DNA of 40,907 nucleotides from Spirochaetaceae bacterium (GTDB taxonomy: Bacteria > Spirochaetota > Spirochaetia > PWKH01): positions 1 to 40,907 of the forward strand of contig PWNW01000380.1 in the NCBI GenBank assembly GCA_003557605.1, written 5' to 3'. The notes beneath the pieces are model-generated. The model was not told the origin of the DNA. It searched no databases and was given only the letters and a program-made list of their open reading frames with translations. Of the stretch, positions 1 through 40,907 are shown in pieces. Position numbers and translations under genes: made by a program. Numbering within the stretch: the first letter of the stretch is position 1; the number at the start of each line of letters is the position of its first letter.

Positions 1-357
1 GACATCAGCAGCCTGCGCGGAACTGTGATAACAAAGATCATCATTCCCGATATTGATCTTCCGGTCCTGCAGAAACGGTTTTCCCGTTCTTCGCAAGGAA
101 AGGCTGCTCTCACTGCTGCGGTGTCACTGGGACATGAGCTGAAGGTGTTTGCATCTGCATACCGTACCGGACTGGTGCGGCTGCACAAGGTCGAAGAGGC
201 CGCAGCAGATCATGGGAATGAACAGCAGATTATACGGGCTGTTCAAGCGTGTTTTTTCCCCGAGGACGACATTTCCGGGACCTCATCCTACAAGCAGTAC
301 CTTGCAGGAACAGCAGTTTCGATGTTTCTTCAGGAACTGAGGCGAAATGGAGGATAA
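1..357 (+). CDS. FAD-binding subunit of a xanthine-dehydrogenase-family enzyme (YgfM-like), C-terminal fragment; 5' end lies outside the window
   Basis: Frame 1 is open from base 1; the tracker starts the ORF at an internal GTG at 25. The C-terminal stretch EDDISGTSSYKQYLAGTAVSMFLQEL resembles the C-terminal domain of CO-dehydrogenase/XDH flavoprotein subunits. The TAA stop at 355-357 sits in the RBS region of the following Mo-hydroxylase gene. Confidence 0.6.
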   Translation, partial: DISSLRGTVITKIIIPDIDLPVLQKRFSRSSQGKAALTAAVSLGHELKVFASAYRTGLVRLHKVEEAAADHGNEQQIIRAVQACFFPEDDISGTSSYKQYLAGTAVSMFLQELRRNGG

Positions 358-361
358 GCAC

Positions 362-1321
362 ATGTCAGTACATCTTACGATAAACGGAATACCAAAAACT
401 GTTCACGGTGATCTGCATGAAAACCTGCAGAAGGTGCTGAAGCGTGAAGGGTACAGGACCGTGCGCAGCAGCGATGACGGTGACGGGTTTGCGGGCAGCG
501 ACACAGTTTTAGTTGACGGAACCCCGGCATTTGCTTCACTGATGGTGCTCGGGCAGGCTGCAGGACGGGAGATCACTACGGCGGAGTCCCTCATGAAGGG
601 GCGAAGACTTTCTGTCATACAGCAGGCCCTGGTTGATTCCGGGGTGGTGCAGTCGGGATATAATATACCCGCCGCCGCGCTGGTGCTGGAGGAGCTCTTC
701 TCCCGTACCCAGTCCCCGACCCGTGAAGAGGCTGCTGATGCCCTTTCCGGGATATTTATTCGTGATGCGGGATATGTGCAGTTTTTTCATGCGGTGGAGC
801 TTGCTGCACAGCGGCTGAAGGACCCCTCCTATGTGACAGAAACAGCCCCGGAATTCCGGGATGATCTTCGCCATGTGGGGAAAGTTCGGGAAAAAGTTGA
901 TGCCCGGAAGCTTGCGGCGGGAATGAAGGCCTACGTGGAGGATTTTGTTGATCCCGATGCCTGCTTCATGCGGATGCTCAGAAGCCCCCATGCCCATGCA
1001 TATATTGCCTCCATTGACGTCTCCCAGGCTGAAGCAATGCCTGGAGTTCTTGCGGTGATTACCCATGAGAACTGTCCTGACGTGTATTACGGCCAGGCTG
1101 GGCAGGGATTTCCTGAACCTTCCCCCTATGACCGGAGAATGTTCAACCGAAAGGTGCGTCATGCGGGTGACCGGGTTGCTGCAGTGGTTGCTGAAACTGA
1201 TGAGATTGCCCTGGAGGCACTGAAGAAGATTTCTGTGAAGTATGACGTGCTTAAACCGGTGATGACCATTGAAGCTGCCAAGGCGCCGGATGCCCCGATC
1301 ATTCACAACAGCGTGGTGTAA
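362..1321 (+). CDS. xdhD: XdhD-type molybdenum hydroxylase, N-terminal segment (cysteine-less 2Fe-2S-like domains plus a/b-hammerhead); ends at an in-frame TAA
   Basis: ATG 362 lies 7 nt after GGAGGA (350-355). MSVHLTINGIP...SSDDGDGFAGSDTVLVDG...VVQSGYNIPAAAL...LSGIFIRDAGY follows the layout of XDH/aldehyde-oxidoreductase Fe-S domains. MLRSPHAHAYIASIDVSQAEAMPGVLAVITHEN is the typical hammerhead domain. TAA 1319-1321 is in frame with ORF 1388..3235. Confidence 0.75.
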   Translation: MSVHLTINGIPKTVHGDLHENLQKVLKREGYRTVRSSDDGDGFAGSDTVLVDGTPAFASLMVLGQAAGREITTAESLMKGRRLSVIQQALVDSGVVQSGYNIPAAALVLEELFSRTQSPTREEAADALSGIFIRDAGYVQFFHAVELAAQRLKDPSYVTETAPEFRDDLRHVGKVREKVDARKLAAGMKAYVEDFVDPDACFMRMLRSPHAHAYIASIDVSQAEAMPGVLAVITHENCPDVYYGQAGQGFPEPSPYDRRMFNRKVRHAGDRVAAVVAETDEIALEALKKISVKYDVLKPVMTIEAAKAPDAPIIHNSVV

Positions 1322-1387
1322 TATGCTGCCGGTGCTCCTGAAGACCTTGATGCCTATAACAAAACTGCTGATCCCCGGGACGGAAAA

Positions 1388-3235
1388 GTGGTGTACCAGT
1401 TTCCCATCGGTGCTGATCCCCATGCGAATATTGCTGCTTCGGTGAGCGGCGGCATCGGAGATATTGAACTTGGCTTTTCCCAGGCTGACAAGGTGATTGA
1501 ACGTACCTACCGATCGAGCCAGGTGCAGTGCACTCCTCTTGAGACCCATGTGGCATATACAAAGATGGAGGGAGACCGTCTGGTTATTCACGCATCAACC
1601 CAGGTGCCGTGGCACCTGAGGAGGATCCTTGCAGCGGTGCTGGGGATCAATGAAAACAAGGTGCGTGTAATTAAGGAGCGTGTCGGAGGCGGGTACGGGT
1701 CCAAGCAGGATATTCTGCTTGAGGATGTGTGCGCCTACGGAACCTGGATCACCGGTCGTCCGGTTTATTTCCGCTACACCAGGGAGGAGGAGTTCATTGC
1801 CAACAGCACCCGTCATGTGATGGACATCACGGTGAAGCTCGGAGCGGATGCAGAGGGAAAGATTACGGCCATGTACATGAACGTAGAGGCCAGCACCGGT
1901 CCCTACGGCAATCACTGCCTCACCGTACCGATGAACGCTTGTTCTAAATCACTTCCCCTGATCATCTGCGATCATGTGAAGTTTGACGTAACCACCTATT
2001 ACGGGAATATCCCGCCAACTGGCGCATACCAGGGGTACGGCGCTCCCAAGGGTTCCTTCGCCTTGATGACCGCCATGGCGGAACTGGCTGAAGAGCTTGG
2101 CATCGACTATCTGGAGCTGATTGAAAAGAACCGGGTGAGGGAGGGCACCATGCTGGAGATACTTAAGTGTCTCGGAGAGGGACGCGAGGGATCTGCGGCA
2201 CCTGTTGAAAGCTGCGGCCTTGATGAAGCATTGCGTCGGGGCCTTGAACTGATGAACTGGGACGAGAAGCCCGTAAGCGACGATGAAGACATCCGCATTG
2301 GGCGGGGTTTTGCCATTATCCAGCAGGGGTCAGGGCTGCCGGGGCTGGACCATTCCTGCGCATATATTCGGATGCTTGCCGACGGGACCTTTATGCTCCA
2401 TTCCGGCGGGGCGGACCTGGGAACAGGGCTTGATACCGTATCGGTGAAGTTTGCCGCAGAACAGCTGTGCGTCGACATGGACCGGATATCGATTATTTCA
2501 GGTGATACCGACACCACACCTTTTGATACCGGTGCATATGCATCAAGCGGCACCTATTTTTCCGGCAGCGCCTCCATGGAGGCCGCCAGGGACTTAAAAA
2601 CAAAGATCCTGCAGACTGCGGCTAAGATCCTCAAGGAGGATACTGGCGGCCTTCAGGTTCAGTACCCTGGGGTGGTCCGGGGTGAGGGCGGAGAGGTCTC
2701 CTTTCTTGATATCGCCAGGGCTGCCCAGTCGGGGGAGGGTGACGGTGAGCTGATGGGGTATGCATCATTTACTACCGAGAACTTTTCGTTCCCCTACGGG
2801 GCCCATTTCTGTCAGGTTGCTGTTCATATGAAGACCGGAGAGATTGAAGTTCAGAAGTATTATGCGCTTCAGGACTGCGGCACTCCGGTGAATCCCGATC
2901 TGGCCCTTGGTCAGATATACGGAGGTGTGCTGAAGACCATCGGCCACAGCCTCTATGAGCAGATGCAGTTTGATTCCCGCGGAGTGTGCGTAAATCCTGT
3001 CCTCAAGGATTACGGAGTTCCGATGATCGGTGACCTGCCGAAGGATTTTCAGGCCCATCTGATATACACCGAAGATCCCTACGGCCCCTACGGCGCCAAG
3101 TCAATTTCTGAAGTCAGCTGCAACGGTGCTTCACCGGCCCTGGCTTCAGCGATTCATGATGCTGCGGGAGTCTGGATCAGAGAGTGGCCCTTTACTCCGG
3201 AGAAGATTCTGCGGGGTTTGGGAAAGATTACCTGA
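1388..3235 (+). CDS. xdhD: XdhD-type molybdenum hydroxylase, molybdopterin-binding segment; same frame as 362..1321, so the pair may be one gene with an internal stop (possible pseudogene)
   Basis: Motifs present: ERVGGGYGSKQD, YQGYGAPKGSFA, SGDTDTTPFDTGAYASSGTYFSG, DCGTPVNPDLALGQIYGGVLKTIGHSLYE, and GAKSISE (catalytic Glu region). The 22 codons 1322-1387 upstream are open in the same frame. Confidence 0.75.
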   Translation: MVYQFPIGADPHANIAASVSGGIGDIELGFSQADKVIERTYRSSQVQCTPLETHVAYTKMEGDRLVIHASTQVPWHLRRILAAVLGINENKVRVIKERVGGGYGSKQDILLEDVCAYGTWITGRPVYFRYTREEEFIANSTRHVMDITVKLGADAEGKITAMYMNVEASTGPYGNHCLTVPMNACSKSLPLIICDHVKFDVTTYYGNIPPTGAYQGYGAPKGSFALMTAMAELAEELGIDYLELIEKNRVREGTMLEILKCLGEGREGSAAPVESCGLDEALRRGLELMNWDEKPVSDDEDIRIGRGFAIIQQGSGLPGLDHSCAYIRMLADGTFMLHSGGADLGTGLDTVSVKFAAEQLCVDMDRISIISGDTDTTPFDTGAYASSGTYFSGSASMEAARDLKTKILQTAAKILKEDTGGLQVQYPGVVRGEGGEVSFLDIARAAQSGEGDGELMGYASFTTENFSFPYGAHFCQVAVHMKTGEIEVQKYYALQDCGTPVNPDLALGQIYGGVLKTIGHSLYEQMQFDSRGVCVNPVLKDYGVPMIGDLPKDFQAHLIYTEDPYGPYGAKSISEVSCNGASPALASAIHDAAGVWIREWPFTPEKILRGLGKIT

Positions 3236-4476: not shown

Positions 4477-4485
4477 CACAGAGTC

Positions 4486-4520
4486 GGCCCGGTCTACAAT
4501 ATGCACCGGGCCTGCTTTTT
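4486..4520 (+). terminator. Rho-independent terminator after ygeW
   Basis: GGCCCGGT (4486-4493) pairs with ACCGGGCC (4505-4512) across an 11-nt loop and is followed by TGCTTTTT. It overlaps the 3' end of the convergent gene 4494..4988. Confidence 0.6.
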
Positions 4521-4988
4521 ATAAGAGGGGTAATCACTGAAGAGTTTCGGAAACAACACCGCATCCTCAATGAGAATAACTGTCAAGTTCAGGAGAATGC
4601 ACCAGAGCATTAAGAGAAGCACCTCCTGGGAGAAGTACATGACGGCAATGAGCAGGTGAACTGCAGTGTACCATATCCAGCCGGGATGCCGGACATATCG
4701 GTAGGTGCCCTTCCGGTAGGCTGTACCGTCCTTCGGGGCAAACAGCATGAGTTCTATGAACACCGAATATATCATCAGGGCAGAAAAGATGATCACCCCG
4801 GTCCAGAGAACAGCAGAGATCACAGAGCCTGCAGAGGAATCATGGATGACTGCCGCTGAAACAGGAGGAAGGGCTGTAAGGGGAAATCCGAGAAAAGATG
4901 CGGCACGCACCAGTTTTGGTAATTTATATATCTGAGTGATATCATATAAAATAACGAGAAAATATGCAGCAGCAGCTGCTGTGTACAA
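4494..4988 (-). CDS. Small polytopic membrane protein, isoprenylcysteine carboxyl methyltransferase (ICMT)/phospholipid methyltransferase-like family
   Basis: The 164-aa product has about 4-5 hydrophobic helices. The motif GTYRYVRHPGWIWY matches the G-x-Y-x-x-V-R-H-P-x-Y signature of this family. Confidence 0.6.
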   Translation of the reverse strand: MYTAAAAAYFLVILYDITQIYKLPKLVRAASFLGFPLTALPPVSAAVIHDSSAGSVISAVLWTGVIIFSALMIYSVFIELMLFAPKDGTAYRKGTYRYVRHPGWIWYTAVHLLIAVMYFSQEVLLLMLWCILLNLTVILIEDAVLFPKLFSDYPSYKKQARCIL

Positions 4989-4996
4989 AATTACAT

Positions 4997-5025
4997 TGCT
5001 AATATGCCGGTTTCCTTATACTATG
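4997..5025 (+). promoter_or_regulatory. Candidate sigma70-type promoter for the histidine kinase gene
   Basis: TTGCTA (4997-5002), a 17-nt spacer, then TACTAT (5020-5025). This is pattern recognition only. Confidence 0.3.
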
Positions 5026-5064
5026 TACATAATCCTTAAACTCTTGTAGGAATACTATAAAGTG

Positions 5065-8000
5065 ATGTATTTTGGTTTGTCAACAATCAGCCAGCTTATT
5101 CCAGCTTCAGCCAGTATATTATATATCTGTTTTGCGGTGTTCGGGTTTTTTCAGTATAACAAGAAAGACTATTTCTGGTCCTTTCAGCTCTATGTAGTGC
5201 TTCTTGCGGTATGGAGCTTCTGTTCCTTTATGATGCGTTCGGGAATTGACATCATGACCCCGCTGTTCTGGAACCGCATCATGCTCATCGGCATGCTCAG
5301 CACCCCCTTTGCTCTGGTGCATTCCATCGTGGACACCATAGGAATTCGCAGCTTACTTATTCGGAGAATTGCACGGACTTCGTATGTACTGATTATTCCG
5401 CTGATGTACTTAAACTTTACCGGCAGGGTGGTCCTCAGTGCTGTCTTTGAAGATGGAATGTTCATCTACCAGCTTGGAAGCGGTTCTTTTTCAGCCTATC
5501 TCACAAGCTATCTCTATCTGCTTCTTATGATTGTACTTATGTTTAAAGAGCTGAGACGTCGTGAATACACCAGGAGAACTAAGGCTCTGTTTCGGATGTA
5601 TATGCTCGGACTTGGAATCATGCTGGGAGGTATACTTCTCAATCTTGATGAGGAGATAGGAAAATACCCCTTTGATATCCTGGCATCGATGATAAACGCT
5701 ATGATCCTGTTCTACGGTGTGTACCGGTATCGGTTAGTTTCCTATACGAAAATAGGTTTTAAAATTCTCTCCATAGCTCTGCTGCTGGTAGTTACATCCC
5801 TGGTCTTTTTTATTGTGTTGCTGCTGGCAAGTCCGATGGTTCCATTTGTGACAAATGAAAACAAGATTATCCTCTCCCTTTTAATGGGGTCTGTTACGGT
5901 GTTAATTGTCTATCCCATACGATATGCAGCAGCCATGCTGATAGATCTGGTCATTATTCCCAGACGTCACCCCTACCAGCAGAAAATCAGGGAATTCAGC
6001 CAGAAGCTTAATACTATCATTGACCTTGATACCCTAGGCAGCCAGGTGATACAAAGCCTTACATCGGGCATACATGTTGACTGGGTTGTCTGTTTGGTCA
6101 GGCCCTATCGTGGCAGCGCATCTGATAACCAGTTCATACTGTTGAGCACCTACGGGTATGACGGTCCGGTGAAGGTAAATGATACCGTTGAAATCACCGT
6201 AGGTGAGCAAACAACTGTCCAGATCGAAGGGATGAAAAAATATTCGACCTCAAGACTGCTTGTGTCCCGTGATACCTACGGCGGATATCTCTTCCACAGG
6301 GATTTTCCTGAAGCAAACATACTTATCCCCCTAATATTCAAAGGGGAAGTAAACGGATATATTGCCATTGGGGCTCCATGGGAAAGCAAAATCTATTCCC
6401 AGTATGAACAGGAGGCGCTTGAAATCCTTGCGGGTCAGTGCTCCCTTTCGGTGAACAATGCAATCTCTTTTGAACGAATTAAAGCACAGGGGAATGAACT
6501 GATTATCAGCAATACGAAACTTGAATCAATCTTCAACGGCATTGGAACACCCCTTGCTCTTACAGATATTGATTTTTCCATTATTGAAGTGAATAATGCC
6601 GCAGTAACCTTCATCGGGAGAAGAAGAGAAGACATTATCGGTGAGAAATGCTATAAGCTGTTTTTCAGCTGCTCCAAGGCCTGCGGGTTCTGCCGGGCAC
6701 CTGAGTCTCTGCGGATTGGACATAGAGCTGAAGGAGAAGCTGTTGTTGAAGGCAGGACCTATTCTCTTCAGTTTCATCCGGTGAAAATACTTCATAATTC
6801 AAGGCAGGTGTTTCTGGAAATCATCCAGGATGTTTCTGAAGAAAAGAAAATGCAGGAAGAGCTGATGGTTTCTGCTAAGATGGCGGAGATAGGTTCTCTT
6901 GCTGCTGGAATAACCCATGACCTCAACAATCCGTTATATGGAATAACCGGGACTGCTGAACTGATGATGACGAAGCTGGAAAAGGACTCTCCTCACCTGG
7001 AATATCTGCAGGACATTCTCCAGTATTCACAAAGTGCAGTTGATGTAGTCCGGGAAATTTCCCTGTATGCACGGGATGAGCAGCGGGATGCTGACAGAGA
7101 TTTGATCGAGGTGATTGATGCGCTTGAATTCTCACTGAAGCTTGCAGCCAGGGGAATGGATTTTTCTGAAATAGAGATTGTCCGGAATTATATCGACTCT
7201 CCGTCAGTAAGGATCAACTCAGGGGAACTTCAGCAGGTATACCTGAACATTATTATGAACGCTCTTCAGGCGATGGGGGGAAAAGGTGTGCTCGCCCTTA
7301 CGGTCCAGGAATCCTACGGAGTTGTATACATCACCATCAATGATACTGGTCCAGGAATACCCAAGGAACACCTGAATCAGGTGTTTACGCCCTTTTTTAC
7401 CACAAAGAACCCGGGAGAGGGTACTGGGCTCGGACTTTCAAACTGCTTCAGAATCGTCAATAAGCATTTTGGACGGATCAGTGTAGAAAGCGAGGAGGGG
7501 AAGGGTGCATCATTTACCATTTTCTTTCCCTCCCAGGAGACAAGCAGCGAACAAATCCGCTTTGTGCTTGCAGAAAAGCAGCACCATATCAACGATGTGT
7601 TCTTTATCCAGCGGAAAGTGCTTATTGGGGAAAAGGGATATATTGAGGAGACTATTCACAGACATGTGGATGATAAAGCTGTGCATCTGCTTGCCTACAA
7701 GGGAGTCGAACCGGTTGGAACTGTTTCCCTGGTCATGACGAAGGATGTCTCGCCCCTGCCGGTACAGACCTATTTTGATGCCGAGAAATATTTTGAGGAC
7801 AAGGAGCATGCAGGTGAGATCATTCGTCTGGCGGTGGTGCCGGAAATGCGAAATACCCTGGTTTCTCTGGGACTGGTCTCCCTGATATTTCTCTATGGAC
7901 GCTCCCAGGGAATGCGGGAAGTGGTAATCGACTGCTTTTCCAATGATGTGAAAAATATAGAAATGTATAAAAAATTCGGATTTGAGATCATTGGTGAATA

Positions 8001-8211
8001 TACCTCCCCGTCATCAGTCACGGTGATGATCCAGCGTTACGGCACACCCCATGAGCGGGATGCAGAAAAGCGGTCACGGTTTCTGGCTCCTATGTTTAGA
8101 AGGCTCTACACCATGTTTGACTTCGGGGAAAAACACCAGTCGGTGATTGAAGAAATGAGAAAAATCATTCCGGAAATCGGTAGAGAATCAGAGAACGGGA
8201 AAGCTGAATAG
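5065..8211 (+). CDS. Multi-TM sensor histidine kinase (7TM-like N-terminus, GAF-like, Cys-rich PAS, HisKA, HATPase_c) fused to a C-terminal GNAT-superfamily acyltransferase-like domain
   Basis: The first ~290 aa are strongly hydrophobic. The PAS-like segment carries CYKLFFSCSKACGFC. Kinase motifs: H-box EIGSLAAGITHDLNNPL, N-box LNIIMNALQAM, G1 NDTGPGIP, F-box FTPFFTTK, G2 GTGLGLS. A further ~165 aa follows (VFFIQRKVLIGEKGY...VHLLAY...GTVSLV...GEIIRLAVVPEMRN...MYKKFGFEIIGEY). The start is ambiguous between GTG 5062 and ATG 5065. Confidence 0.85.
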   Translation: MYFGLSTISQLIPASASILYICFAVFGFFQYNKKDYFWSFQLYVVLLAVWSFCSFMMRSGIDIMTPLFWNRIMLIGMLSTPFALVHSIVDTIGIRSLLIRRIARTSYVLIIPLMYLNFTGRVVLSAVFEDGMFIYQLGSGSFSAYLTSYLYLLLMIVLMFKELRRREYTRRTKALFRMYMLGLGIMLGGILLNLDEEIGKYPFDILASMINAMILFYGVYRYRLVSYTKIGFKILSIALLLVVTSLVFFIVLLLASPMVPFVTNENKIILSLLMGSVTVLIVYPIRYAAAMLIDLVIIPRRHPYQQKIREFSQKLNTIIDLDTLGSQVIQSLTSGIHVDWVVCLVRPYRGSASDNQFILLSTYGYDGPVKVNDTVEITVGEQTTVQIEGMKKYSTSRLLVSRDTYGGYLFHRDFPEANILIPLIFKGEVNGYIAIGAPWESKIYSQYEQEALEILAGQCSLSVNNAISFERIKAQGNELIISNTKLESIFNGIGTPLALTDIDFSIIEVNNAAVTFIGRRREDIIGEKCYKLFFSCSKACGFCRAPESLRIGHRAEGEAVVEGRTYSLQFHPVKILHNSRQVFLEIIQDVSEEKKMQEELMVSAKMAEIGSLAAGITHDLNNPLYGITGTAELMMTKLEKDSPHLEYLQDILQYSQSAVDVVREISLYARDEQRDADRDLIEVIDALEFSLKLAARGMDFSEIEIVRNYIDSPSVRINSGELQQVYLNIIMNALQAMGGKGVLALTVQESYGVVYITINDTGPGIPKEHLNQVFTPFFTTKNPGEGTGLGLSNCFRIVNKHFGRISVESEEGKGASFTIFFPSQETSSEQIRFVLAEKQHHINDVFFIQRKVLIGEKGYIEETIHRHVDDKAVHLLAYKGVEPVGTVSLVMTKDVSPLPVQTYFDAEKYFEDKEHAGEIIRLAVVPEMRNTLVSLGLVSLIFLYGRSQGMREVVIDCFSNDVKNIEMYKKFGFEIIGEYTSPSSVTVMIQRYGTPHERDAEKRSRFLAPMFRRLYTMFDFGEKHQSVIEEMRKIIPEIGRESENGKAE

Positions 8212-8242
8212 CAGCCCGGGAAAAATCCCCGGACTGCTGTTT
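8210..8242. terminator. Hairpin between the convergent kinase and permease genes (probably a bidirectional terminator)
   Basis: AGCAGCCCGGG (8210-8220) pairs with CCCCGGACTGCT (8227-8238) with one bulge, followed by GTTT. Confidence 0.45.
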
Positions 8243-26160: not shown

Positions 26161-27162
26161 TTATTCCCCGTACATATTGTACAGGTACTTAAAGTAGTCC
26201 ATATCGGTGGTGAGAGTCTTCTGGAAATTCGGCAGAGTCCGTCGATATGATTCAATGGTTCTCCAGAATTCAAAGAACTCCCGGTCCTGTTCATATGCTT
26301 CGGCATAAATATTTACTGCACGAGCATCGGCACGACCGCGAATTTCCTCAGCGGTGGCATAGGCTTCCGAAAGGATTCGCCGCTGGTCATTGTCAAGGCG
26401 TCCGAGCCATTCAGATTTCAGTCCCTGCCCAAATGAGCGGTAGGCTTCAGCAATTTGGATCCGTTCTGCGATCATCCTCTGATACACGCTTTCGGTTAGA
26501 TCCTCAGAATACCGAATCTGCCTGATGATAATATCGATCAGCTCTATTCCATATGTTGCAATGACTTCTTTTGCCGAATTATACATTTCAACAGAAAGAT
26601 TTTCTCTTCCTTTGTCAACGCGGTCATAGGTCTGGTCAACTCGGGTGAGCTGACGGAGCTGCTCAGTGCTGATGGATACATCCTCCTGCACCGCTTCAGC
26701 CTCTTCTAGTCCCACAACATCACGTTCTATTTCCATAATCCGGTTGGAGTTCCTCACTGCTTCACGGAGAAAGTTCTCCGAAACAATGGTCCGTACCGAA
26801 GAATCCACCACATCATCCAGCCTGGAGTATCCCTGTTCAATCGAGGTTACTGAAGCATAGAACAGAGCAGGATCGTTGATCCTCCACCGTGCAGTGGTAT
26901 CAACCCAGATGAACTGGTTTTCCCTGGTAGGTATTCTCTGGGCATCTCCGTCCCAGGAGAGTATCTTCGTCGGATACTTGACCACGTTGTCCACCACGGG
27001 CATCTTGAAATGAAGTCCCGTTGCTGTGTTGGTGTTTACGATGGCTCCGAACCGGGTGACCACCGCCTGCTCGCCCTCGCTTACAATATAGAAAGGTCCG
27101 AGCAGCACTATGATGATGATCAGCACAACGATTATTACTGCAGTTGTTATAAGTTTTTTCAT
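26161..27162 (-). CDS. hflC: FtsH protease modulator HflC (SPFH/band-7 family)
   Basis: An N-terminal TM segment is followed by IVSEGEQAVVTRFGAI...GLHFKMPVVDNVVKY. It is the second gene of the pair, and its ATG overlaps the hflK TAA as TAATG. Confidence 0.85.
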   Translation of the reverse strand: MKKLITTAVIIVVLIIIIVLLGPFYIVSEGEQAVVTRFGAIVNTNTATGLHFKMPVVDNVVKYPTKILSWDGDAQRIPTRENQFIWVDTTARWRINDPALFYASVTSIEQGYSRLDDVVDSSVRTIVSENFLREAVRNSNRIMEIERDVVGLEEAEAVQEDVSISTEQLRQLTRVDQTYDRVDKGRENLSVEMYNSAKEVIATYGIELIDIIIRQIRYSEDLTESVYQRMIAERIQIAEAYRSFGQGLKSEWLGRLDNDQRRILSEAYATAEEIRGRADARAVNIYAEAYEQDREFFEFWRTIESYRRTLPNFQKTLTTDMDYFKYLYNMYGE

Positions 27163-28148
27163 TACTGACCACCTCCTTCTGAACGCTGCTGAATTGACTG
27201 GAGGGGCAGGAAGTTATCAAGTTTTTTGTCAATGATGATGGTGCTGTCAATGTTGCTGAACACTTCTTCCATGGTCTCAATATACAGCCGGGTTCTTGTT
27301 ACATCCTCGCTGGTCTTGTAGGCTTCAAGTATGGAGACAAATCTGGCTACATCTCCCCGTGCAGTATTGATCCGCTGAGAAGAGTATCCTTCAGCCTGCT
27401 GAATGAGCTGAGCTGCTTCACCCTGGGCCCTGGGAATAGCACGGTTATACTGCTCCTTTCCTTCATTCACCAGACGGTTCATGTCCTGGATTGCCTTGTT
27501 TACATCCTCAAAGGCATCCTGCACTTCACCCTTGGGCGGTACAATATTTCGCAGTCTCACAGTGGTTATGGTGATCCCCAGTCCGTACTGGTTGAAGGAC
27601 TGCTGCATATCACGCTGGGCCATGAATTCAATATTGGTCCTCTCTGGGCCGATGACGTCAAGGATGGCAAGGTCACCCACCAGCTTGTTCAACACTGACT
27701 GGCTGATGTCCCTGATGGTGGTCTCTTTTTCCCGGACATTGAAGAGCCAGGCCCTTGGATCGCTGATGCGGTACTGGATGATCCATTCCACATCAATGAT
27801 GTTCAGGTCTCCAGTAAGCATAATAGATTCTTCAGGGAAATCCCCAACAGCAAAGGTGCTGGATACTCCGGGACGGTCAGCCCTGAATCCGAAGGTCATG
27901 TTCAGAATCCTCTGTGTGGGAACATTAAAGTTCTGTTCTATCCCCAGGGGAAGCTTGAACTGCAGGCCGGGGCCTACGGTACGATTAAATCTCCCAAGTC
28001 GAAGAACGACTGACTGTTCGGTCTGGTCAACTACAAATAGGCTGGTTCCGGCAATGATTATTATCAGCACGATTGCTGCTGCCAGCCACAAGAGTTTCGG
28101 TGAAATGTTCAGCCGCTGTCCCTTCGGAGAGACATTGCGATCAAGCAT
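27162..28148 (-). CDS. hflK: FtsH protease modulator HflK (SPFH/band-7 family)
   Basis: GAGGAGGAG RBS. An N-terminal TM segment is followed by VVDQTEQSVVLRLGRFNRTVGPGLQFKLPLGIE. It is the first gene of the hflKC pair. Confidence 0.85.
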   Translation of the reverse strand: MLDRNVSPKGQRLNISPKLLWLAAAIVLIIIIAGTSLFVVDQTEQSVVLRLGRFNRTVGPGLQFKLPLGIEQNFNVPTQRILNMTFGFRADRPGVSSTFAVGDFPEESIMLTGDLNIIDVEWIIQYRISDPRAWLFNVREKETTIRDISQSVLNKLVGDLAILDVIGPERTNIEFMAQRDMQQSFNQYGLGITITTVRLRNIVPPKGEVQDAFEDVNKAIQDMNRLVNEGKEQYNRAIPRAQGEAAQLIQQAEGYSSQRINTARGDVARFVSILEAYKTSEDVTRTRLYIETMEEVFSNIDSTIIIDKKLDNFLPLQSIQQRSEGGGQ

Positions 28149-39028: not shown

Positions 39029-39922
39029 CTATTTTCCAGCCAGTGAAATGACCTTTTCGTAGCCGAAGAGTTCATCACGCTTCATGGTTCCCTTTTCAGC
39101 AGTGATTCCGTAGGTCTCATGGAGCTGTGAAAGAAATGCATCGATGAATTCATGGTTTTCAGGCCGTTTTCCCGTCTCTTCAAGTACGGAGGTTGAAGGT
39201 TCCAGTACTTTGTCCTTGATTTCCGGTGAAACCCAAACAACTTTGAACAGCTCCTTGGTCTCAAGGGGAGCAAGAAACAGCACTACATTTACTGTTATCA
39301 GGTTTTCAATTTCTGAAACAAGAATATTCGCAATCTTTTTTCCGCCAACTCTTACTCCGCCGCGATGACGGTACCAGGCATCAACCCCAAACCGCTTCAG
39401 GGTATCCACAAGCAGATTTCCTACATCACGGAATGCATCCTCAGGAGATGAGAAGGAACTGCGGTCAGTTACCATCTGAATGTTGATGGTGGAATCCGGG
39501 GACACAAACACCAGAGTTCTCTGCCCGGTAAGCACCACATGCTCCAAAGTGGGAACATCATCCCTGATCTCATTGATCAGATTGGCAAAATTGCTCAAGG
39601 TAATAAGCACCTTGGCCTGGCAGTCATTGAGAATATAGGTAATCTCCCTTCCCTTATACATAGAGTTGAAGGGGACTGCGACAGCTCCGATTTTCTGAAT
39701 GCCGAAAAAGCAGTACACAAATTCCGGAATGTTGGGCAGCATCATGGCAACCCGGTCACCCTGTTTTACTCCAAGGGAAACAAGGGCATTGGCAGATTTG
39801 TTCGCATGTTCATTCAGTTCACGGTATGAGATTTTTTTTCCCTCAAAGTAGAGGGCATCCTTTCTTTTATATGCCTTGGTGATCGTCTCCAGCATGTGGG
39901 CTAAATGTTTGATTTCACTCAT
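39029..39922 (-). CDS. Hybrid ORF: N-terminal ~130 aa of an AMP-dependent acyl-CoA synthetase joined to the C-terminal half of a lipoate/biotin protein ligase (BPL_LplA_LipB)-like domain
   Basis: The N-terminus reads ALYFEGKKISYRELNEHANKSANALVSLGVKQGDRVAMMLPNIPEFVYCFFGIQKIGAVAVPFNSMYKGREITYILNDCQAKVLIT, which is an ACS N-domain. The C-terminus reads LKRFGVDAWYRHRGGVRVGGKKIANIL...VVLFLAP...STSVLEETG...FIDAFLSQLHETYG, which is LplA/LplJ-like. A strong GGAGGAGGAAG RBS is present, and the start overlaps the upstream stop by 8 nt. Confidence 0.65.
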   Translation of the reverse strand: MSEIKHLAHMLETITKAYKRKDALYFEGKKISYRELNEHANKSANALVSLGVKQGDRVAMMLPNIPEFVYCFFGIQKIGAVAVPFNSMYKGREITYILNDCQAKVLITLSNFANLINEIRDDVPTLEHVVLTGQRTLVFVSPDSTINIQMVTDRSSFSSPEDAFRDVGNLLVDTLKRFGVDAWYRHRGGVRVGGKKIANILVSEIENLITVNVVLFLAPLETKELFKVVWVSPEIKDKVLEPSTSVLEETGKRPENHEFIDAFLSQLHETYGITAEKGTMKRDELFGYEKVISLAGK

Positions 39923-40907
39923 CTGAAGCTTCCTCCTCCTGGAGAATCAGCCGTTTGTCAACTGTGTCTGCGTTTCTCAGTTCCTTGCGGAGCACTTTTC
40001 CTGTAGCACTTTTCGGCAGACTCTCACTGAATTCTACAATCTTCGGGATTTTATACTCCGCAAGATGTTCGCGGCAGAACTGAAGGATTTCCTGTGAGGT
40101 GCTCTCCATTCCATCCTTGAGCACAACGAAGGCCTTCACGGTTTCCCGTTCTCGTTTGTCTTTTACCGCAACCACAGCTGCTTCCTCCACCGGAGGAAAA
40201 CTCATGATGACTTCCTCAACCTCACGGGGAGAAATATTGAATCCACCTCGAACTATCAGGTCCTTTTTTCTGTCGGTAATGAAGAAAAACCCGTCTGCAT
40301 CACGATACCCTAAATCCCCAGTAGCAAACCAGAGGTCCTTAATCACTTCATCGGTAGCTTCCTGGTTGTTCCAGTATCCGGTTGTCACTACTTCACCCTT
40401 GATGATAATCTCACCTTCGGTTCCGTCGGGAACATCGTTTCCGTCAAAGTCAACTACCTTCATATCAACCCCGGGAGAAGCTGGACCGATAGACCCCGGC
40501 TTGAACTGTTCCCCGGTCTTGTTCAGAGAAACCGCTGAAGTTGTCTCGGTAAGTCCGTATCCCTCGGCAATCTGAGTCTGGAAAAGCTCCATAAACTCCT
40601 CAAGGGTCTTCATCGGCAGCGGTGCTCCTCCTGAAACGCAGAGCCTTAGGCTCTTTGGTATTTCAGTTTTTCTGGCACGGGCAATCTGCAGAAGGTGCAT
40701 ATACATGCTTGGTACTGCAATCAGCAGAGTTGCTGTCGTAGAGGTAATAGTATCCAGAAGCTTTGCAGGGCTGTACTGCGGTATAAGCGACATAGCACAG
40801 CCGTTACGAGTCCCGCATACAAGACCATTGGAAAGCCCGTACACATGGAAGAGGGGACGCACCAGCACCACCGTGTCCTTGTGGGACATGGGCATAATAT
40901 TCTCAAC
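39915..40907 (-). CDS. AMP-dependent acyl-CoA synthetase/ligase, C-terminal two-thirds; N-terminus lies beyond the window end
   Basis: The frame is open to base 40907 (VENIMPMSHKD...). Motifs: YGLTETTS, TGDLGYRDADGFFFITDRKKDLI, GGFNISPREVEE and LPKSATGKVLRKEL. Confidence 0.85.
   Translation of the reverse strand, partial: VENIMPMSHKDTVVLVRPLFHVYGLSNGLVCGTRNGCAMSLIPQYSPAKLLDTITSTTATLLIAVPSMYMHLLQIARARKTEIPKSLRLCVSGGAPLPMKTLEEFMELFQTQIAEGYGLTETTSAVSLNKTGEQFKPGSIGPASPGVDMKVVDFDGNDVPDGTEGEIIIKGEVVTTGYWNNQEATDEVIKDLWFATGDLGYRDADGFFFITDRKKDLIVRGGFNISPREVEEVIMSFPPVEEAAVVAVKDKRERETVKAFVVLKDGMESTSQEILQFCREHLAEYKIPKIVEFSESLPKSATGKVLRKELRNADTVDKRLILQEEEASDE

Follow-up and report, generated by a model that had tools for sequence, protein, structure and literature searches.

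A histidine kinase–GNAT fusion conserved in Spirochaetota and its association with a putative methyltransferase and an HD-GYP response regulator

Histidine kinases normally work by phosphotransfer alone, and an enzyme welded onto the catalytic domain of a kinase is unusual. FeeM is a free-standing enzyme whose biosynthetic cluster also encodes a dedicated ACP, and the characterised members of the TIGR03694-type family synthesise N-acyl amides with long chains. In the Rpf/DSF system of Xanthomonas, the sensor RpfC represses the signal synthase RpfF by binding to it and passes its own signal to the RR-HD-GYP protein RpfG, which hydrolyses c-di-GMP (PMC5391125). In Myxococcus xanthus, motility is regulated by PixB (PilZ-PilZ-GNAT) by way of an acetyltransferase domain, the substrate of which is unknown (PMC8316039). 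In line with the preliminary description of the locus studied here, we found no characterised kinase–GNAT fusion in the published literature, nor any description there of a module combining an acyltransferase, a methyltransferase and a HisKA_7TM kinase.

The window (the whole stretch of DNA analysed, 40.9 kb) carries on the + strand a gene, hereafter HK-GNAT (5062..8211; 1049 aa), that forms one unbroken ORF and has full-length homologs (P0001–P0064) with 94–37% identity. The true start is probably the ATG at 5065, because the 94%-identical P0001 opens with MYFGL. The whole protein was scanned with Pfam, and the tail was also scanned alone. A HisKA_7TM membrane sensor region (residues 18–227, 5113..5742; PF16927, 34.7 bits, cut-off 28.6) is followed by a weak GAF-like region (residues 321–463, 6022..6450), in which GAF and GAF_2 were below cut-off in the window protein and for which GAF matches above threshold were recorded in several orthologs. 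Next comes a PAS domain (residues 486–595, 6517..6846; PAS_9, 34.4 bits at 498–593), with Cys530 and Cys544 present in all 64 family sequences and Cys541 in 63 of them. The HisKA dimerisation and phospho-acceptor domain (residues 612–674, 6895..7083; 37.7 bits) contains an invariant His619 (6916–6918; n = 64), and the N, G1, F and G2 boxes of the catalytic ATP-binding domain HATPase_c (residues 722–825, 7225..7536; 88.6 bits) are almost invariant in the same 64 sequences. The protein thus has the H-box histidine and the four boxes of a HisKA-type sensor histidine kinase. Pfam yielded no Response_reg match, as expected of a hybrid-kinase receiver, anywhere in HK-GNAT, and the C-terminal position is occupied by a FeeM-like GNAT core (residues 831–993, 7552..8040), supported by Pfam, AF2 and Foldseek. 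A two-helix extension (residues 994–1035, 8041..8166), recognised from AF2 helices and conserved residues, completes the tail, and a terminator-like hairpin (8216..8232, + strand), found by pattern matching as CCGGGAAAAATCCCCGG followed by a T-rich tail, lies 3′ of the stop codon.

The preliminary description placed a complete kinase core and a GNAT-superfamily domain in one polypeptide, and the single ORF and the Pfam matches bear this out. The segment 7552–8040 that it assigned to an acyltransferase corresponds to the GNAT core of the AF2 model, and every sequence motif that it cited was found in the protein. It also raised the possibility that an assembly join or a frameshift near 7530–7560 had merged two genes, as a sequencing error there might do too. 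The reading frame is unbroken there. The same architecture was found in 63 full-length homologs from independent assemblies (94–37% identity), and the fusion is carried by at least 64 protein clusters and 143 species genomes, nearly all from Spirochaetota and including isolate genomes; cultured hosts are Sphaerochaeta halotolerans 4-11, Sphaerochaeta sp. PS and S2, and Pleomorphochaeta sp. The kinase–GNAT junction is free of indels across the family, and in 56 of the 57 sequences 57 residues separate the G2 box from the 'QRK' motif of the GNAT domain. Isolated disruptions do occur elsewhere, as within the GNAT domain of P0049/L074, which is frameshifted, but nothing else favours an artefact, and the comparative data refute that explanation. 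Mean column identity in the family alignment was 0.72 for the GNAT domain versus 0.74–0.76 for the kinase core, so the GNAT domain is conserved on a par with the kinase. The fusion is therefore real and conserved.

A resemblance of the tail to N-acyl amino acid synthases, AHL synthases and OlsB-type acyltransferases had been proposed, and it stood only in part. FeeM (PF21926) was the top Pfam match within the clan (residues 858–985; 45.1 bits for the whole protein and 48.7 bits for the tail alone, cut-off 27, E = 9e-13), and Acetyltransf_1 also passed its cut-off of 20.7 (residues 864–974; 30–33.5 bits, the lowest value being 30.3), so that the tail has a significant GNAT match. However, Autoind_synth (PF00765, LuxI) gave no match at E ≤ 1, Acetyltransf_5 (PF13444, OlsB/hm-NAS) remained under its cut-off of 22.4 (14.0–17.4 bits), and the TIGR03694 model of exosortase-associated acyltransferases scored 18.1 bits against a cut-off of 111.95. 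The nearest solved sequences retrieved with the family profile were the small acetyltransferases SACOL1063 (E = 2.5e-11) and YjcF, and FeeM itself (2G0B) was not retrieved from the PDB sequences at E ≤ 10. SACOL1063, used as an acetyl-CoA GNAT control, had no match at all to the FeeM Pfam model.

The AF2 model of the tail (mean pLDDT 89.9, pTM 0.87) has its first strand at tail residues 6–10 and its last core strand at 160–166, and the GNAT alpha/beta fold was confirmed by Foldseek, with 721 GNAT-type PDB matches at E ≤ 1e-3 (best 1.4e-10). The best E-values were obtained with SACOL1063 and YjcF (5JPH and 1Q2Y; TM 0.87–0.88 on the target), the highest query coverage with the AHL synthases BjaI and RpaI (TMq 0.61–0.64 over 213–224 columns), and FeeM 2G0B matched at E = 3e-9 (TMq 0.57–0.59); with hundreds of GNATs at E < 1e-3, this comparison has no power to tell acyl- from acetyltransferases. 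The CoA pyrophosphate loop (R/Q-x-x-G-x-G/A) that follows strand beta4 is replaced by RNTLVS in the window protein and by RGSIVP in the deep clade, which align to RGQGMG, RSAGVG, RTGVG and RKGVA of solved GNATs, and the glycines of this loop are likewise missing from the non-fused relatives of the tail. The candidate catalytic residues Glu919 (7816–7818) and Tyr969 (7966–7968) are invariant in the 64 family members and in the non-fused relatives, and about 40 further positions of the GNAT domain are invariant over the 37–94% identity range and in the free-standing relatives. The helices of the C-terminal extension (tail residues 175–190 and 196–209; pLDDT 86–94), with the near-invariant residues E998, F1007, P1010 and L1015, are also common to the non-fused relatives. 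The tail is a genuine, probably active acyltransferase; it represents a separate FeeM-like GNAT subfamily, with a core, a two-helix extension and a degenerate CoA loop.

The statement that no response regulator lies nearby holds for the window but not for the family. No Response_reg match was found among the 30 other ORFs scanned in the window, and tblastn of the window with RR-HD-GYP queries gave a best match of only E = 0.33. By contrast, 58 of 60 HK-GNAT loci carry an RR-HD-GYP gene two genes away, and this gene and a small membrane protein gene, which lie divergently upstream of HK-GNAT, are the sole neighbours kept across both deep clades. The HD, HHE and GYP motifs are intact in all 60 regulators, and the receiver Asp motif in 59. 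In L102, the locus of a 52% ortholog, synteny is otherwise identical, but a 356-aa Response_reg+HD_5/HD gene occupies the place where the window has none (4477..4493; 18 bp from the carbamoyltransferase stop to the end of the small ORF). Judging from this synteny, the absence of the regulator is a lineage-specific deletion and not a property of the architecture. Since the kinase, the GNAT domain and the methyltransferase-like gene are intact, the partner regulator is presumably encoded elsewhere. RR-HD-GYP is the likely cognate regulator of HK-GNAT.

The small multi-pass membrane protein is encoded in the window at 4494..4988 (− strand), as a conserved divergent neighbour of HK-GNAT. This methyltransferase-like gene, immediately upstream of HK-GNAT, was overlooked in the preliminary description. 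The intergenic region (4989..5061) is short, with about 57–60 bp from start to start in most loci, and a consensus match to a promoter-like TTGACA-18-TATAGT (11/12; 5083..5054, − strand) lies upstream of the small ORF. Homologs of the small protein were found in 57 of 60 HK-GNAT loci (36 of 40 by clustering). Pfam ICMT was matched by 14 of 15 members and PEMT by nine of 15, all just under cut-off; the window protein scored 23.4 for PEMT (cut-off 25) and 22.7 for ICMT (cut-off 24). The sole match of the family profile in the PDB was the ICMT structure 4A2N (E = 0.0097), in an alignment that matches the RHP and E[ED]..F..Y..Y motifs in register. The invariant residues are D16, E79, G94, Y96, R100-H-P-G103, D142, F146, P147, F150 and Y153, and the cofactor-site motifs G.Y...RHP.. 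and E[ED]..L/F...F..Y..Y are present; the predicted structure had a pLDDT of only 55, too low for it to be used. We therefore regard this protein as a putative ICMT/PEMT-like methyltransferase. As judged from the conserved neighbourhoods, HK-GNAT, this membrane methyltransferase-like protein and the receiver-HD-GYP c-di-GMP phosphodiesterase constitute a three-gene module of Spirochaetota.

The nearest non-fused relatives of the tail are standalone proteins of about 190–200 aa or are fused to REC or PilZ domains; the REC-GNAT and PilZ-GNAT proteins show that the domain serves as a regulated output. A class-I SAM methyltransferase adjoins, or is fused to, these relatives in eight of nine contexts and a HisKA_7TM protein adjoins them in seven of eight, contexts that represent perhaps four or five lineages rather than nine independent ones. 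The adjacent methyltransferases are mutually orthologous, with identities tracking those of the GNATs, and in P0188 a different class I methyltransferase is fused to the GNAT domain. The best solved relatives of the class-I partner are phosphoethanolamine and PE N-methyltransferases (5WP5, 2.5e-14; 8YS9), and the closest ones also include carboxyl O-methyltransferases. Three non-homologous methyltransferases (the membrane ICMT-like protein, the adjacent class I enzyme and the class I enzyme fused in P0188) point to a shared methylation step. Individual clusters contain as many as four or five 7TM receptor kinases in tandem, and two of the clusters enclose a FadL/TodX channel for hydrophobic compounds, an FadL-type importer. 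By these associations, the GNAT subfamily is wired more widely to SAM methyltransferases and HisKA_7TM kinases.

The fold, the conserved architecture and the gene associations are established, and the reading of them that we favour, with a probability of about one half, is that the GNAT domain and the methyltransferase make an N-acylated, methylated amphiphile, its synthesis being coupled to a 7TM kinase controlling c-di-GMP. We infer that an active GNAT domain would take an acyl group, its chain probably medium or long, from a donor (acyl-ACP or acyl-CoA) and attach it to an acceptor amine, an amino acid for example; the acylated product would then be methylated by the methyltransferase to yield a neutral amphiphile, akin to a methylated aminolipid or to the methyl ester of an N-acyl amino acid. 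The GNAT domain is attached by a very short linker of fixed length to the ATP-binding domain, at the end of a complete 7TM-GAF-PAS kinase, and because the synthase would be tethered to the kinase catalytic domain at the membrane, synthesis may be coupled to the kinase's signalling state. The product may itself be sensed by the 7TM domain, and phosphorylated RR-HD-GYP would lower c-di-GMP. However, the closest solved sequences are small acetyl-CoA-dependent GNATs and not FeeM, the LuxI, OlsB-type and TIGR03694 models fell below their cut-offs, and Foldseek does not discriminate between acyl and acetyl transfer. In addition, the methyltransferase assignment of the small protein comes from sub-threshold matches, and the relatives of the class-I partner mix N- and carboxyl O-methyltransferases. 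A more specific version, in which the FeeM-like GNAT and the methyltransferase would produce a neutral autoinducer of the N-acyl amino acid methyl ester type and HisKA_7TM kinases would be its receptors, as a novel class of chemical communication, is offered tentatively as a possibility that we would not bet on. The Spirochaetota synthase would then be fused to its own receptor kinase and act through the HD-GYP phosphodiesterase on c-di-GMP.

The same genes might instead modify proteins, with the GNAT domain acetylating or acylating the kinase itself, some other signalling protein or RR-HD-GYP, while a protein carboxylate or amine would be methylated by the methyltransferase; this would give covalent adaptation or feedback comparable to that of cAMP-regulated protein acetyltransferases or of CheR/CheB. 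ICMT enzymes act on the C-termini of proteins, which they methylate, and this would fit, as would the small acetyltransferases among the nearest solved sequences, the protein acetyltransferases HP0935 and Rv0998 among the Foldseek fold matches, the likeness of the REC- and PilZ-fused relatives to regulated protein acetyltransferases, and the regulation of motility by the PixB acetyltransferase domain (PMC8316039). We nevertheless consider protein modification unlikely: the canonical acetyl-CoA pyrophosphate loop is not kept, the best family is FeeM and not a protein-acetyltransferase model, FadL/TodX outer-membrane channels are embedded in two clusters, and the swap from a soluble to an integral-membrane methyltransferase fits a lipidic substrate better. 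Moreover, the C-terminus of the kinase is variable and is therefore an unlikely ICMT-type target.

A further alternative is structural lipid remodelling, in which the two enzymes would make a methylated membrane aminolipid, much as in a route where the head group is methylated after OlsB-type N-acylation, and the kinase would simply regulate, or be regulated by, membrane composition. The small protein matches PEMT as well as ICMT, the phosphoethanolamine/PE N-methyltransferases are nearest to the class-I partner, the enzyme is membrane-tethered, and an OlsB resemblance had been raised earlier; but Acetyltransf_5, the OlsB family, was under its cut-off, no OlsA-like O-acyltransferase partner is conserved, the response regulator and the small protein alone being kept, and tandem 7TM receptor kinases with an FadL-type importer look more like signal perception than lipid housekeeping. 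This explanation seems to us somewhat less probable again. Decidedly improbable is a GNAT fold that binds acetyl-CoA, acyl-CoA or acyl-ACP as a metabolic cue and tunes the kinase allosterically without turnover. The degenerate CoA loop could mean that canonical catalysis has been lost, and allostery would be well served by a rigid tether of fixed length to the ATP-binding domain, but the invariance of Glu919, Tyr969 and some 40 other positions extends to standalone relatives that have nothing to regulate in cis, and the obligate pairing with a methyltransferase, including a GNAT–methyltransferase fusion, implies a pathway.

The comparative data turn a one-gene curiosity into a testable module of GNAT, methyltransferase and HisKA_7TM kinase, with an HD-GYP regulator in its spirochaete variant and FadL-type channels elsewhere. 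If the GNAT domain and the methyltransferase do make a signal, the autoinducer chemistry would be new and outside Proteobacteria, the genes would be the first candidates for the biosynthesis of methyl esters of N-acyl amino acids, and the orphan, uncharacterised HisKA_7TM sensor domain would gain its first ligand class. Under the alternative readings, too, the module would be a new means of tying lipid synthesis or covalent modification to signalling by two-component systems and c-di-GMP.

Among the known systems, FeeM (2G0B; PF21926) resembles the tail as its top Pfam family and as a fold match, and both lack the canonical CoA glycine loop and have a conserved Glu opening strand beta4 (E-I-x-R-L-A-V). 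However, the similarity to 2G0B is structural and not detectable by sequence, and the HK-GNAT domain is fused to a kinase, ends in two additional C-terminal helices and has a methyltransferase as its partner. LuxI-type AHL synthases, including the CoA-dependent BjaI and RpaI, show the top structural coverage, a similar N-terminal motif pattern and a beta4 strand containing Glu and Arg, but differ in the lack of an Autoind_synth match at E ≤ 1 and in the separate methyltransferase conserved in HK-GNAT loci, where no sign of SAM-derived lactone chemistry was seen. The exosortase-associated TIGR03694 family is likewise one of FeeM-like GNATs that have a genomic link to a sorting or signalling system, but its members are not kinase-fused and HK-GNAT has no exosortase context. 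SACOL1063 and YjcF have the N-terminal motif F..R..V.V.E.G...E..D..D....H in common with the tail, whereas they retain a canonical CoA loop (RGQGMG and RSAGVG), lack the C-terminal extension and have no FeeM Pfam match.

PixB and the cAMP-regulated Rv0998 also combine a signalling domain with a GNAT output, and PilZ-GNAT and REC-GNAT proteins are among the relatives of the tail; these two are, however, soluble second-messenger effectors with presumed protein substrates, and neither lies within a histidine kinase. In the Rpf system, RpfF has a crotonase fold and is bound non-covalently via a receiver, whereas the GNAT domain is joined covalently after the ATP-binding domain in HK-GNAT, which has a HisKA_7TM-GAF-PAS sensor, no receiver or HPt and an additional methyltransferase-like gene. 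The candidate synthase is thus a GNAT and not a crotonase-type RpfF, no REC or HPt of a hybrid RpfC was found with Pfam, and it is the logic alone that the two systems have in common: a membrane sensor kinase physically coupled to a fatty-signal enzyme, putative in HK-GNAT, with an HD-GYP regulator as output.

HK-GNAT, the sensor histidine kinase with a C-terminal GNAT domain, is encoded by an unbroken ORF of 1049 aa (window 5062–8211, forward strand), and its true start is probably the ATG at 5065, because P0001, a homolog with 94% identity, begins MYFGL. A Pfam analysis of the entire protein identified HisKA_7TM (residues 18–227), a weak GAF (321–463), PAS_9 (498–593), HisKA (612–674) and HATPase_c (722–825) domains, followed by FeeM (PF21926, residues 858–985; 45.1 bits for the whole protein and 48.7 bits, E=9e-13, for the tail alone, cut-off 27) and Acetyltransf_1 (864–974; 30–33.5 bits, cut-off 20.7). 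The AlphaFold2 model of the tail, obtained with an alignment of 23 family tails (pTM 0.87, mean pLDDT 89.9), has a GNAT core with its first strand at tail residues 6–10 and two confident helices C-terminal to the core. The single ORF, the Pfam matches and this model bear out the preliminary description of a kinase core followed, in one polypeptide, by a GNAT at window 7552–8040 (residues 831–993). The linker between the ATP-binding domain and the GNAT is fixed, at ~6 residues.

The PAS domain carries a cysteine triad, C530-x10-C541-x2-C544 (window 6649–6693), whose residues are invariant in 64/64, 63/64 and 64/64 of the family, respectively, and which may serve to bind a metal or Fe-S cluster or to sense redox state; Cys537 occurs in the lineage of the window alone. 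A near-consensus sigma-70-like promoter match (TTGACA-18-TATAGT, 11/12) lies within the first kinase codons on the reverse strand (window 5054–5083), facing a small ORF, and a terminator-like hairpin lies 3' of the HK-GNAT stop codon (8216–8232, forward strand). These are matches to a pattern only, and promoter-like matches overall did not exceed those of shuffled controls.

A search of 5.8 billion proteins yielded 63 full-length homologs (94% to 37% identity, ~98–100% coverage), all with FeeM, HATPase_c and HisKA and nearly all with HisKA_7TM, after which the score fell from 767 to 165 bits and ordinary kinases followed. When one genome per species was scanned, 143 genomes proved to encode a tail relative, and 80 loci were kept; these bear the names Sphaerochaeta, Sphaerochaetaceae, Pleomorphochaeta, Spirochaetia, Treponemataceae, Rectinema and Sediminispirochaetaceae, and include the isolates S. 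halotolerans 4-11, Sphaerochaeta sp. PS and Sphaerochaeta sp. S2. One 'Cloacimonadota' MAG with the locus is probably mis-binned, since its partner genes are 84–87% identical to those of Sphaerochaeta. Wherever the contig permits, the ORF holding the tail has 1020–1070 aa, and the GNAT domain equals the kinase core in conservation (mean column identity 0.72 for the GNAT and 0.74–0.76 for the core). His619 and the N, G1, F and G2 boxes are invariant in 64 sequences, as are ~40 positions of the tail in the family alignment. In 56 of 57 sequences, 57 residues separate the G2 box from the QRK motif, which indicates a junction without indels. The probability that the fusion is an artefact of a frameshift or assembly join is thus close to nil: the sequence and frame are continuous across window 7530–7560, the site at which such a join had been envisaged, and the same fusion is kept in all 63 homologs. 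In P0049, from a Sphaerochaeta MAG (locus L074), a frameshift within the GNAT domain gives an 883-aa product and a separate 182-aa ORF, and reflects a pseudogene or an assembly error. Judging from these sequences, the fusion is real, conserved and lineage-restricted. NCBI labels its members 'GNAT family N-acetyltransferase' or 'PAS domain S-box protein', and our literature search turned up no description of a kinase-GNAT fusion, in agreement with the earlier remark that its author knew of no characterised example of this architecture.

The orthologs at 47% and 40% identity have a 168–180-aa membrane protein gene divergently upstream of the fusion, followed by a Response_reg+HD_5/HD gene, that is, a response regulator (RR) with an HD-GYP c-di-GMP phosphodiesterase domain. 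Among the retrieved loci whose sequence reaches 4.3 kb or more upstream of the tail (n=60, including the window), RR-HD-GYP was found in 58, the small protein in 57 and both in 55; the divergent genes are ~57–60 bp apart, start to start. All-against-all clustering of flanking ORFs from 40 loci showed these two (RR 39/40, small protein 36/40) to be the sole neighbours kept across both deep clades. The full-length RRs contain HDxGK, HHE and GxGYP in 60/60 and the receiver Asp motif in 59/60, and the nearest NCBIfam model is 'response regulator c-di-GMP phosphodiesterase'. Of the 60 loci, just two are without the RR, the window and L007, its closest relative; the short contig of a 57% relative (L103) has none either. 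L102, the locus of a 52% identical ortholog, has the synteny of the window (xanthine dehydrogenase, carbamoyltransferase, RR-HD-GYP, small protein, HK-GNAT, permease, adenine deaminase, ABC transporter), and since it keeps the RR in this identical order, the gene was cleanly deleted in the window and L007 lineage. In the window, 18 bp separate the stop of the carbamoyltransferase gene (4476) from the small ORF (4494–4988, reverse strand), with the deletion scar at 4477–4493. Transfer of the RR to another site within the window was ruled out, as no receiver domain occurs anywhere in its 40.9 kb. The partner regulator is presumably encoded elsewhere in the genome, given that the kinase motifs are still invariant in the RR-less clade. 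The preliminary observation that no RR is adjacent therefore holds for the window but describes a local deletion, and at the family level the kinase is no orphan.

Some other features of the window were recorded. The xanthine-dehydrogenase-like gene (347–3235, forward strand) is split by one in-frame TAA (1319–1321). At this codon the orthologs L102 and L005 carry GAA (Glu), and the ~960-aa protein can be aligned on either side of it; the break denotes a nonsense mutation, a pseudogene or an error in sequencing. Two tandem Band_7/SPFH genes are located at 26161–28148 (reverse strand), and at L003 a set of two Band_7 genes and NfeD lies directly downstream of the HK-GNAT gene; the resemblance may be a remnant of an older linkage or a coincidence. 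Near the window edge (39029–40895, reverse strand), two abutting ORFs in an odd arrangement each contain part of the AMP-binding profile, the upstream one positions 202–384 with AMP-binding_C and the downstream one positions 5–123 with a lipoate-ligase-like catalytic domain.

In the small protein, a membrane protein of several helices, the invariant residues are D16, E79, G94, Y96, R100-H-P-G103, D142, F146, P147, F150 and Y153. Its 15 members matched ICMT (14/15), PEMT (9/15) and DUF1295 (3/15), all slightly under the cut-offs (for the window protein, PEMT 23.4, cut-off 25; ICMT 22.7, cut-off 24). The only PDB match of the family profile was 4A2N, an integral-membrane isoprenylcysteine carboxyl methyltransferase; it is weak (E=0.0097) and in register at the cofactor-site motifs. 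A homolog search with the window protein returned one near-identical fragment, and a single-sequence structure model (pLDDT 55) was discarded. It is probably a methyltransferase of the ICMT/PEMT superfamily.

A word-index search with the tail alone returned 3 fragments only, and an exhaustive profile search of 1.84 billion representatives was used instead. This gave 649 matches at E<=1e-3, 11 of which, below 1e-30, were the fusion family and its fragments. Next came free-standing proteins of ~190–200 aa, proteins with an unassigned ~110-aa N-terminus, P0188 (a GNAT-like N-terminus and a class-I methyltransferase in one chain), P0136 (Response_reg+FeeM; L087, 3150–4100) and P0144 (PilZ+FeeM). 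The last two are close relatives of the tail, PilZ being a c-di-GMP-binding domain, and suggest that the subfamily is a recurrent signalling output domain.

A metagenome scan with an alignment of four relatives gave 7 loci, 2 of them informative. The gene orders around the non-fused relatives as a whole were: in L089, a HATPase_c-only protein, the GNAT P0134, Methyltransf_11 (its start overlapping the GNAT stop) and a HisKA_7TM-GAF-kinase; in L087/L088, REC-GNAT, methyltransferase and a HisKA_7TM protein; in L092, a GNAT-methyltransferase fusion and HisKA_7TM; in L097, 7TM-GAF-kinase, 7TM-kinase, REC, GNAT, Methyltransf_11 and 7TM-kinase; in L104, methyltransferase, GNAT and a sub-threshold, truncated HisKA_7TM; in L105, GNAT, methyltransferase and the contig end; and in L093, a nucleotide cyclase and GNAT, without a methyltransferase. 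L091 (1045–6666) has four tandem HisKA_7TM kinases, Toluene_X/FadL, GNAT, methyltransferase and HisKA_7TM, and L096 (31–10563) has 7TM-GAF-kinase, REC, 7TM-kinase, Toluene_X, 7TM-kinase, GNAT, Methyltransf_11, 7TM-kinase and a REC protein, so that the GNAT-methyltransferase pair stands amid four to five paralogous HisKA_7TM kinases and an outer-membrane channel of the FadL/TodX type. A methyltransferase was thus next to or fused with the non-fused GNAT in 8/9 contexts, and a HisKA_7TM protein adjoined in 7/8 with sufficient flank, although these contexts represent perhaps 4–5 lineages rather than nine independent samples. Specific orthology between these kinases and the fused one was considered and rejected: with cores 27–37% identical, they stand no nearer to it than generic kinases do, and the link is therefore one of domain architecture (HisKA_7TM). 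The free-standing 170-aa HATPase_c-only protein, directly upstream of P0134 (L089, 7283–7795; L090, 676–1188), is 38% identical to residues 712–823 of the window kinase and corresponds, in unfused form, to the CA-GNAT junction.

The adjoining methyltransferases are mutually orthologous (27–56% identity, following the GNAT identities) and unrelated to the methyltransferase half of P0188. The GNAT subfamily is consequently found with methyltransferases of three non-homologous kinds (membrane ICMT-like, class-I type A and class-I type B), which argues for a common methylation step in one pathway. The methylation chemistry of the nearest solved or curated relatives was uninformative, with N- and O-methyltransferases mixed and all under family cut-offs.

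Architecture, conservation, fold and gene associations are demonstrated; from these we infer a mechanism. The REC- and PilZ-fused relatives imply that the GNAT is an enzymatic output, which would N-acylate an amine, probably with a fatty acyl group, and a role as a non-catalytic acyl-CoA sensor seems very improbable. The methyltransferase would then methylate the acylated product, giving a neutral amphiphile. We give this two-enzyme small-molecule or lipid reading a probability of about 0.5. Modification or adaptation of a protein by the same module has a precedent in PixB (PMC8316039) and is an unlikely alternative, as the integral-membrane enzyme in place of a soluble one and the FadL/TodX channels in two clusters are easier to reconcile with a small, lipid-like molecule than with a protein as substrate. 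For the methylation, transfer to the nitrogen of an aminolipid head group is an equally good candidate; synthesis of a structural aminolipid is rather improbable.

As to signalling by the small-molecule product, synthesis would be coupled to the kinase's signalling state through the tether that joins the synthase to the mobile ATP-binding domain, and the HisKA_7TM kinases, which recur with as many as five in a cluster, would be candidate receptors; our literature search found no known ligand for HisKA_7TM. This extension to a full synthase-receptor system is tentative and somewhat doubtful. HK-GNAT belongs to a two-component system that has an acyltransferase fused to it and a methyltransferase of its own, with a credible chance of new signalling chemistry, and, because it belongs to a conserved, undescribed module, it is more interesting than first noted.

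The earlier suggestion of a FeeM/LuxI/OlsB-like enzyme stands in part: FeeM, the top Pfam family, was above its cut-off, whereas Autoind_synth did not match the tail and Acetyltransf_5 and TIGR03694 scored under their cut-offs. The subfamily combines the GNAT core with a C-terminal helical extension bearing Y/H-E-[KR] and [KR]-L motifs, and its invariants are a His, the Gly of VGT, the Pro of LP, Glu919, the Ala of LAV and Tyr969. We consider the tail, on profile evidence, a distinct subfamily of the Pfam FeeM family, and leave its function at this membership, a role as N-acyl amino acid synthase not being claimed as demonstrated. The closest solved sequences are SACOL1063 (E=2.5e-11) and YjcF, over the N-terminal half only. 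SACOL1063, an acetyl-CoA enzyme used as a control, scored 62.8 bits with Acetyltransf_1 and had no Pfam FeeM match. At the CoA pyrophosphate loop, solved GNATs have glycines (RGQGMG, RSAGVG, RTGVG, RKGVA) that are absent from the HK-GNAT family (RNTLVS or RGSIVP) and from the free-standing relatives. The loop, the control and the best Pfam family speak for a FeeM-like enzyme of non-acetyl type; the closest solved sequences and the profiles under their cut-offs speak against assigning it with confidence. So does the fold search, in which Foldseek matched hundreds of GNATs to the tail model. The AHL synthases BjaI and RpaI (TMq 0.61–0.64) cover most of it, despite the missing Autoind_synth match. 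FeeM itself was not recovered at E<=10 by the profile against PDB sequences, but it likewise covers most of the model (E=3e-9, TMq 0.57–0.59), and the tail resembles it in both best Pfam family and fold.
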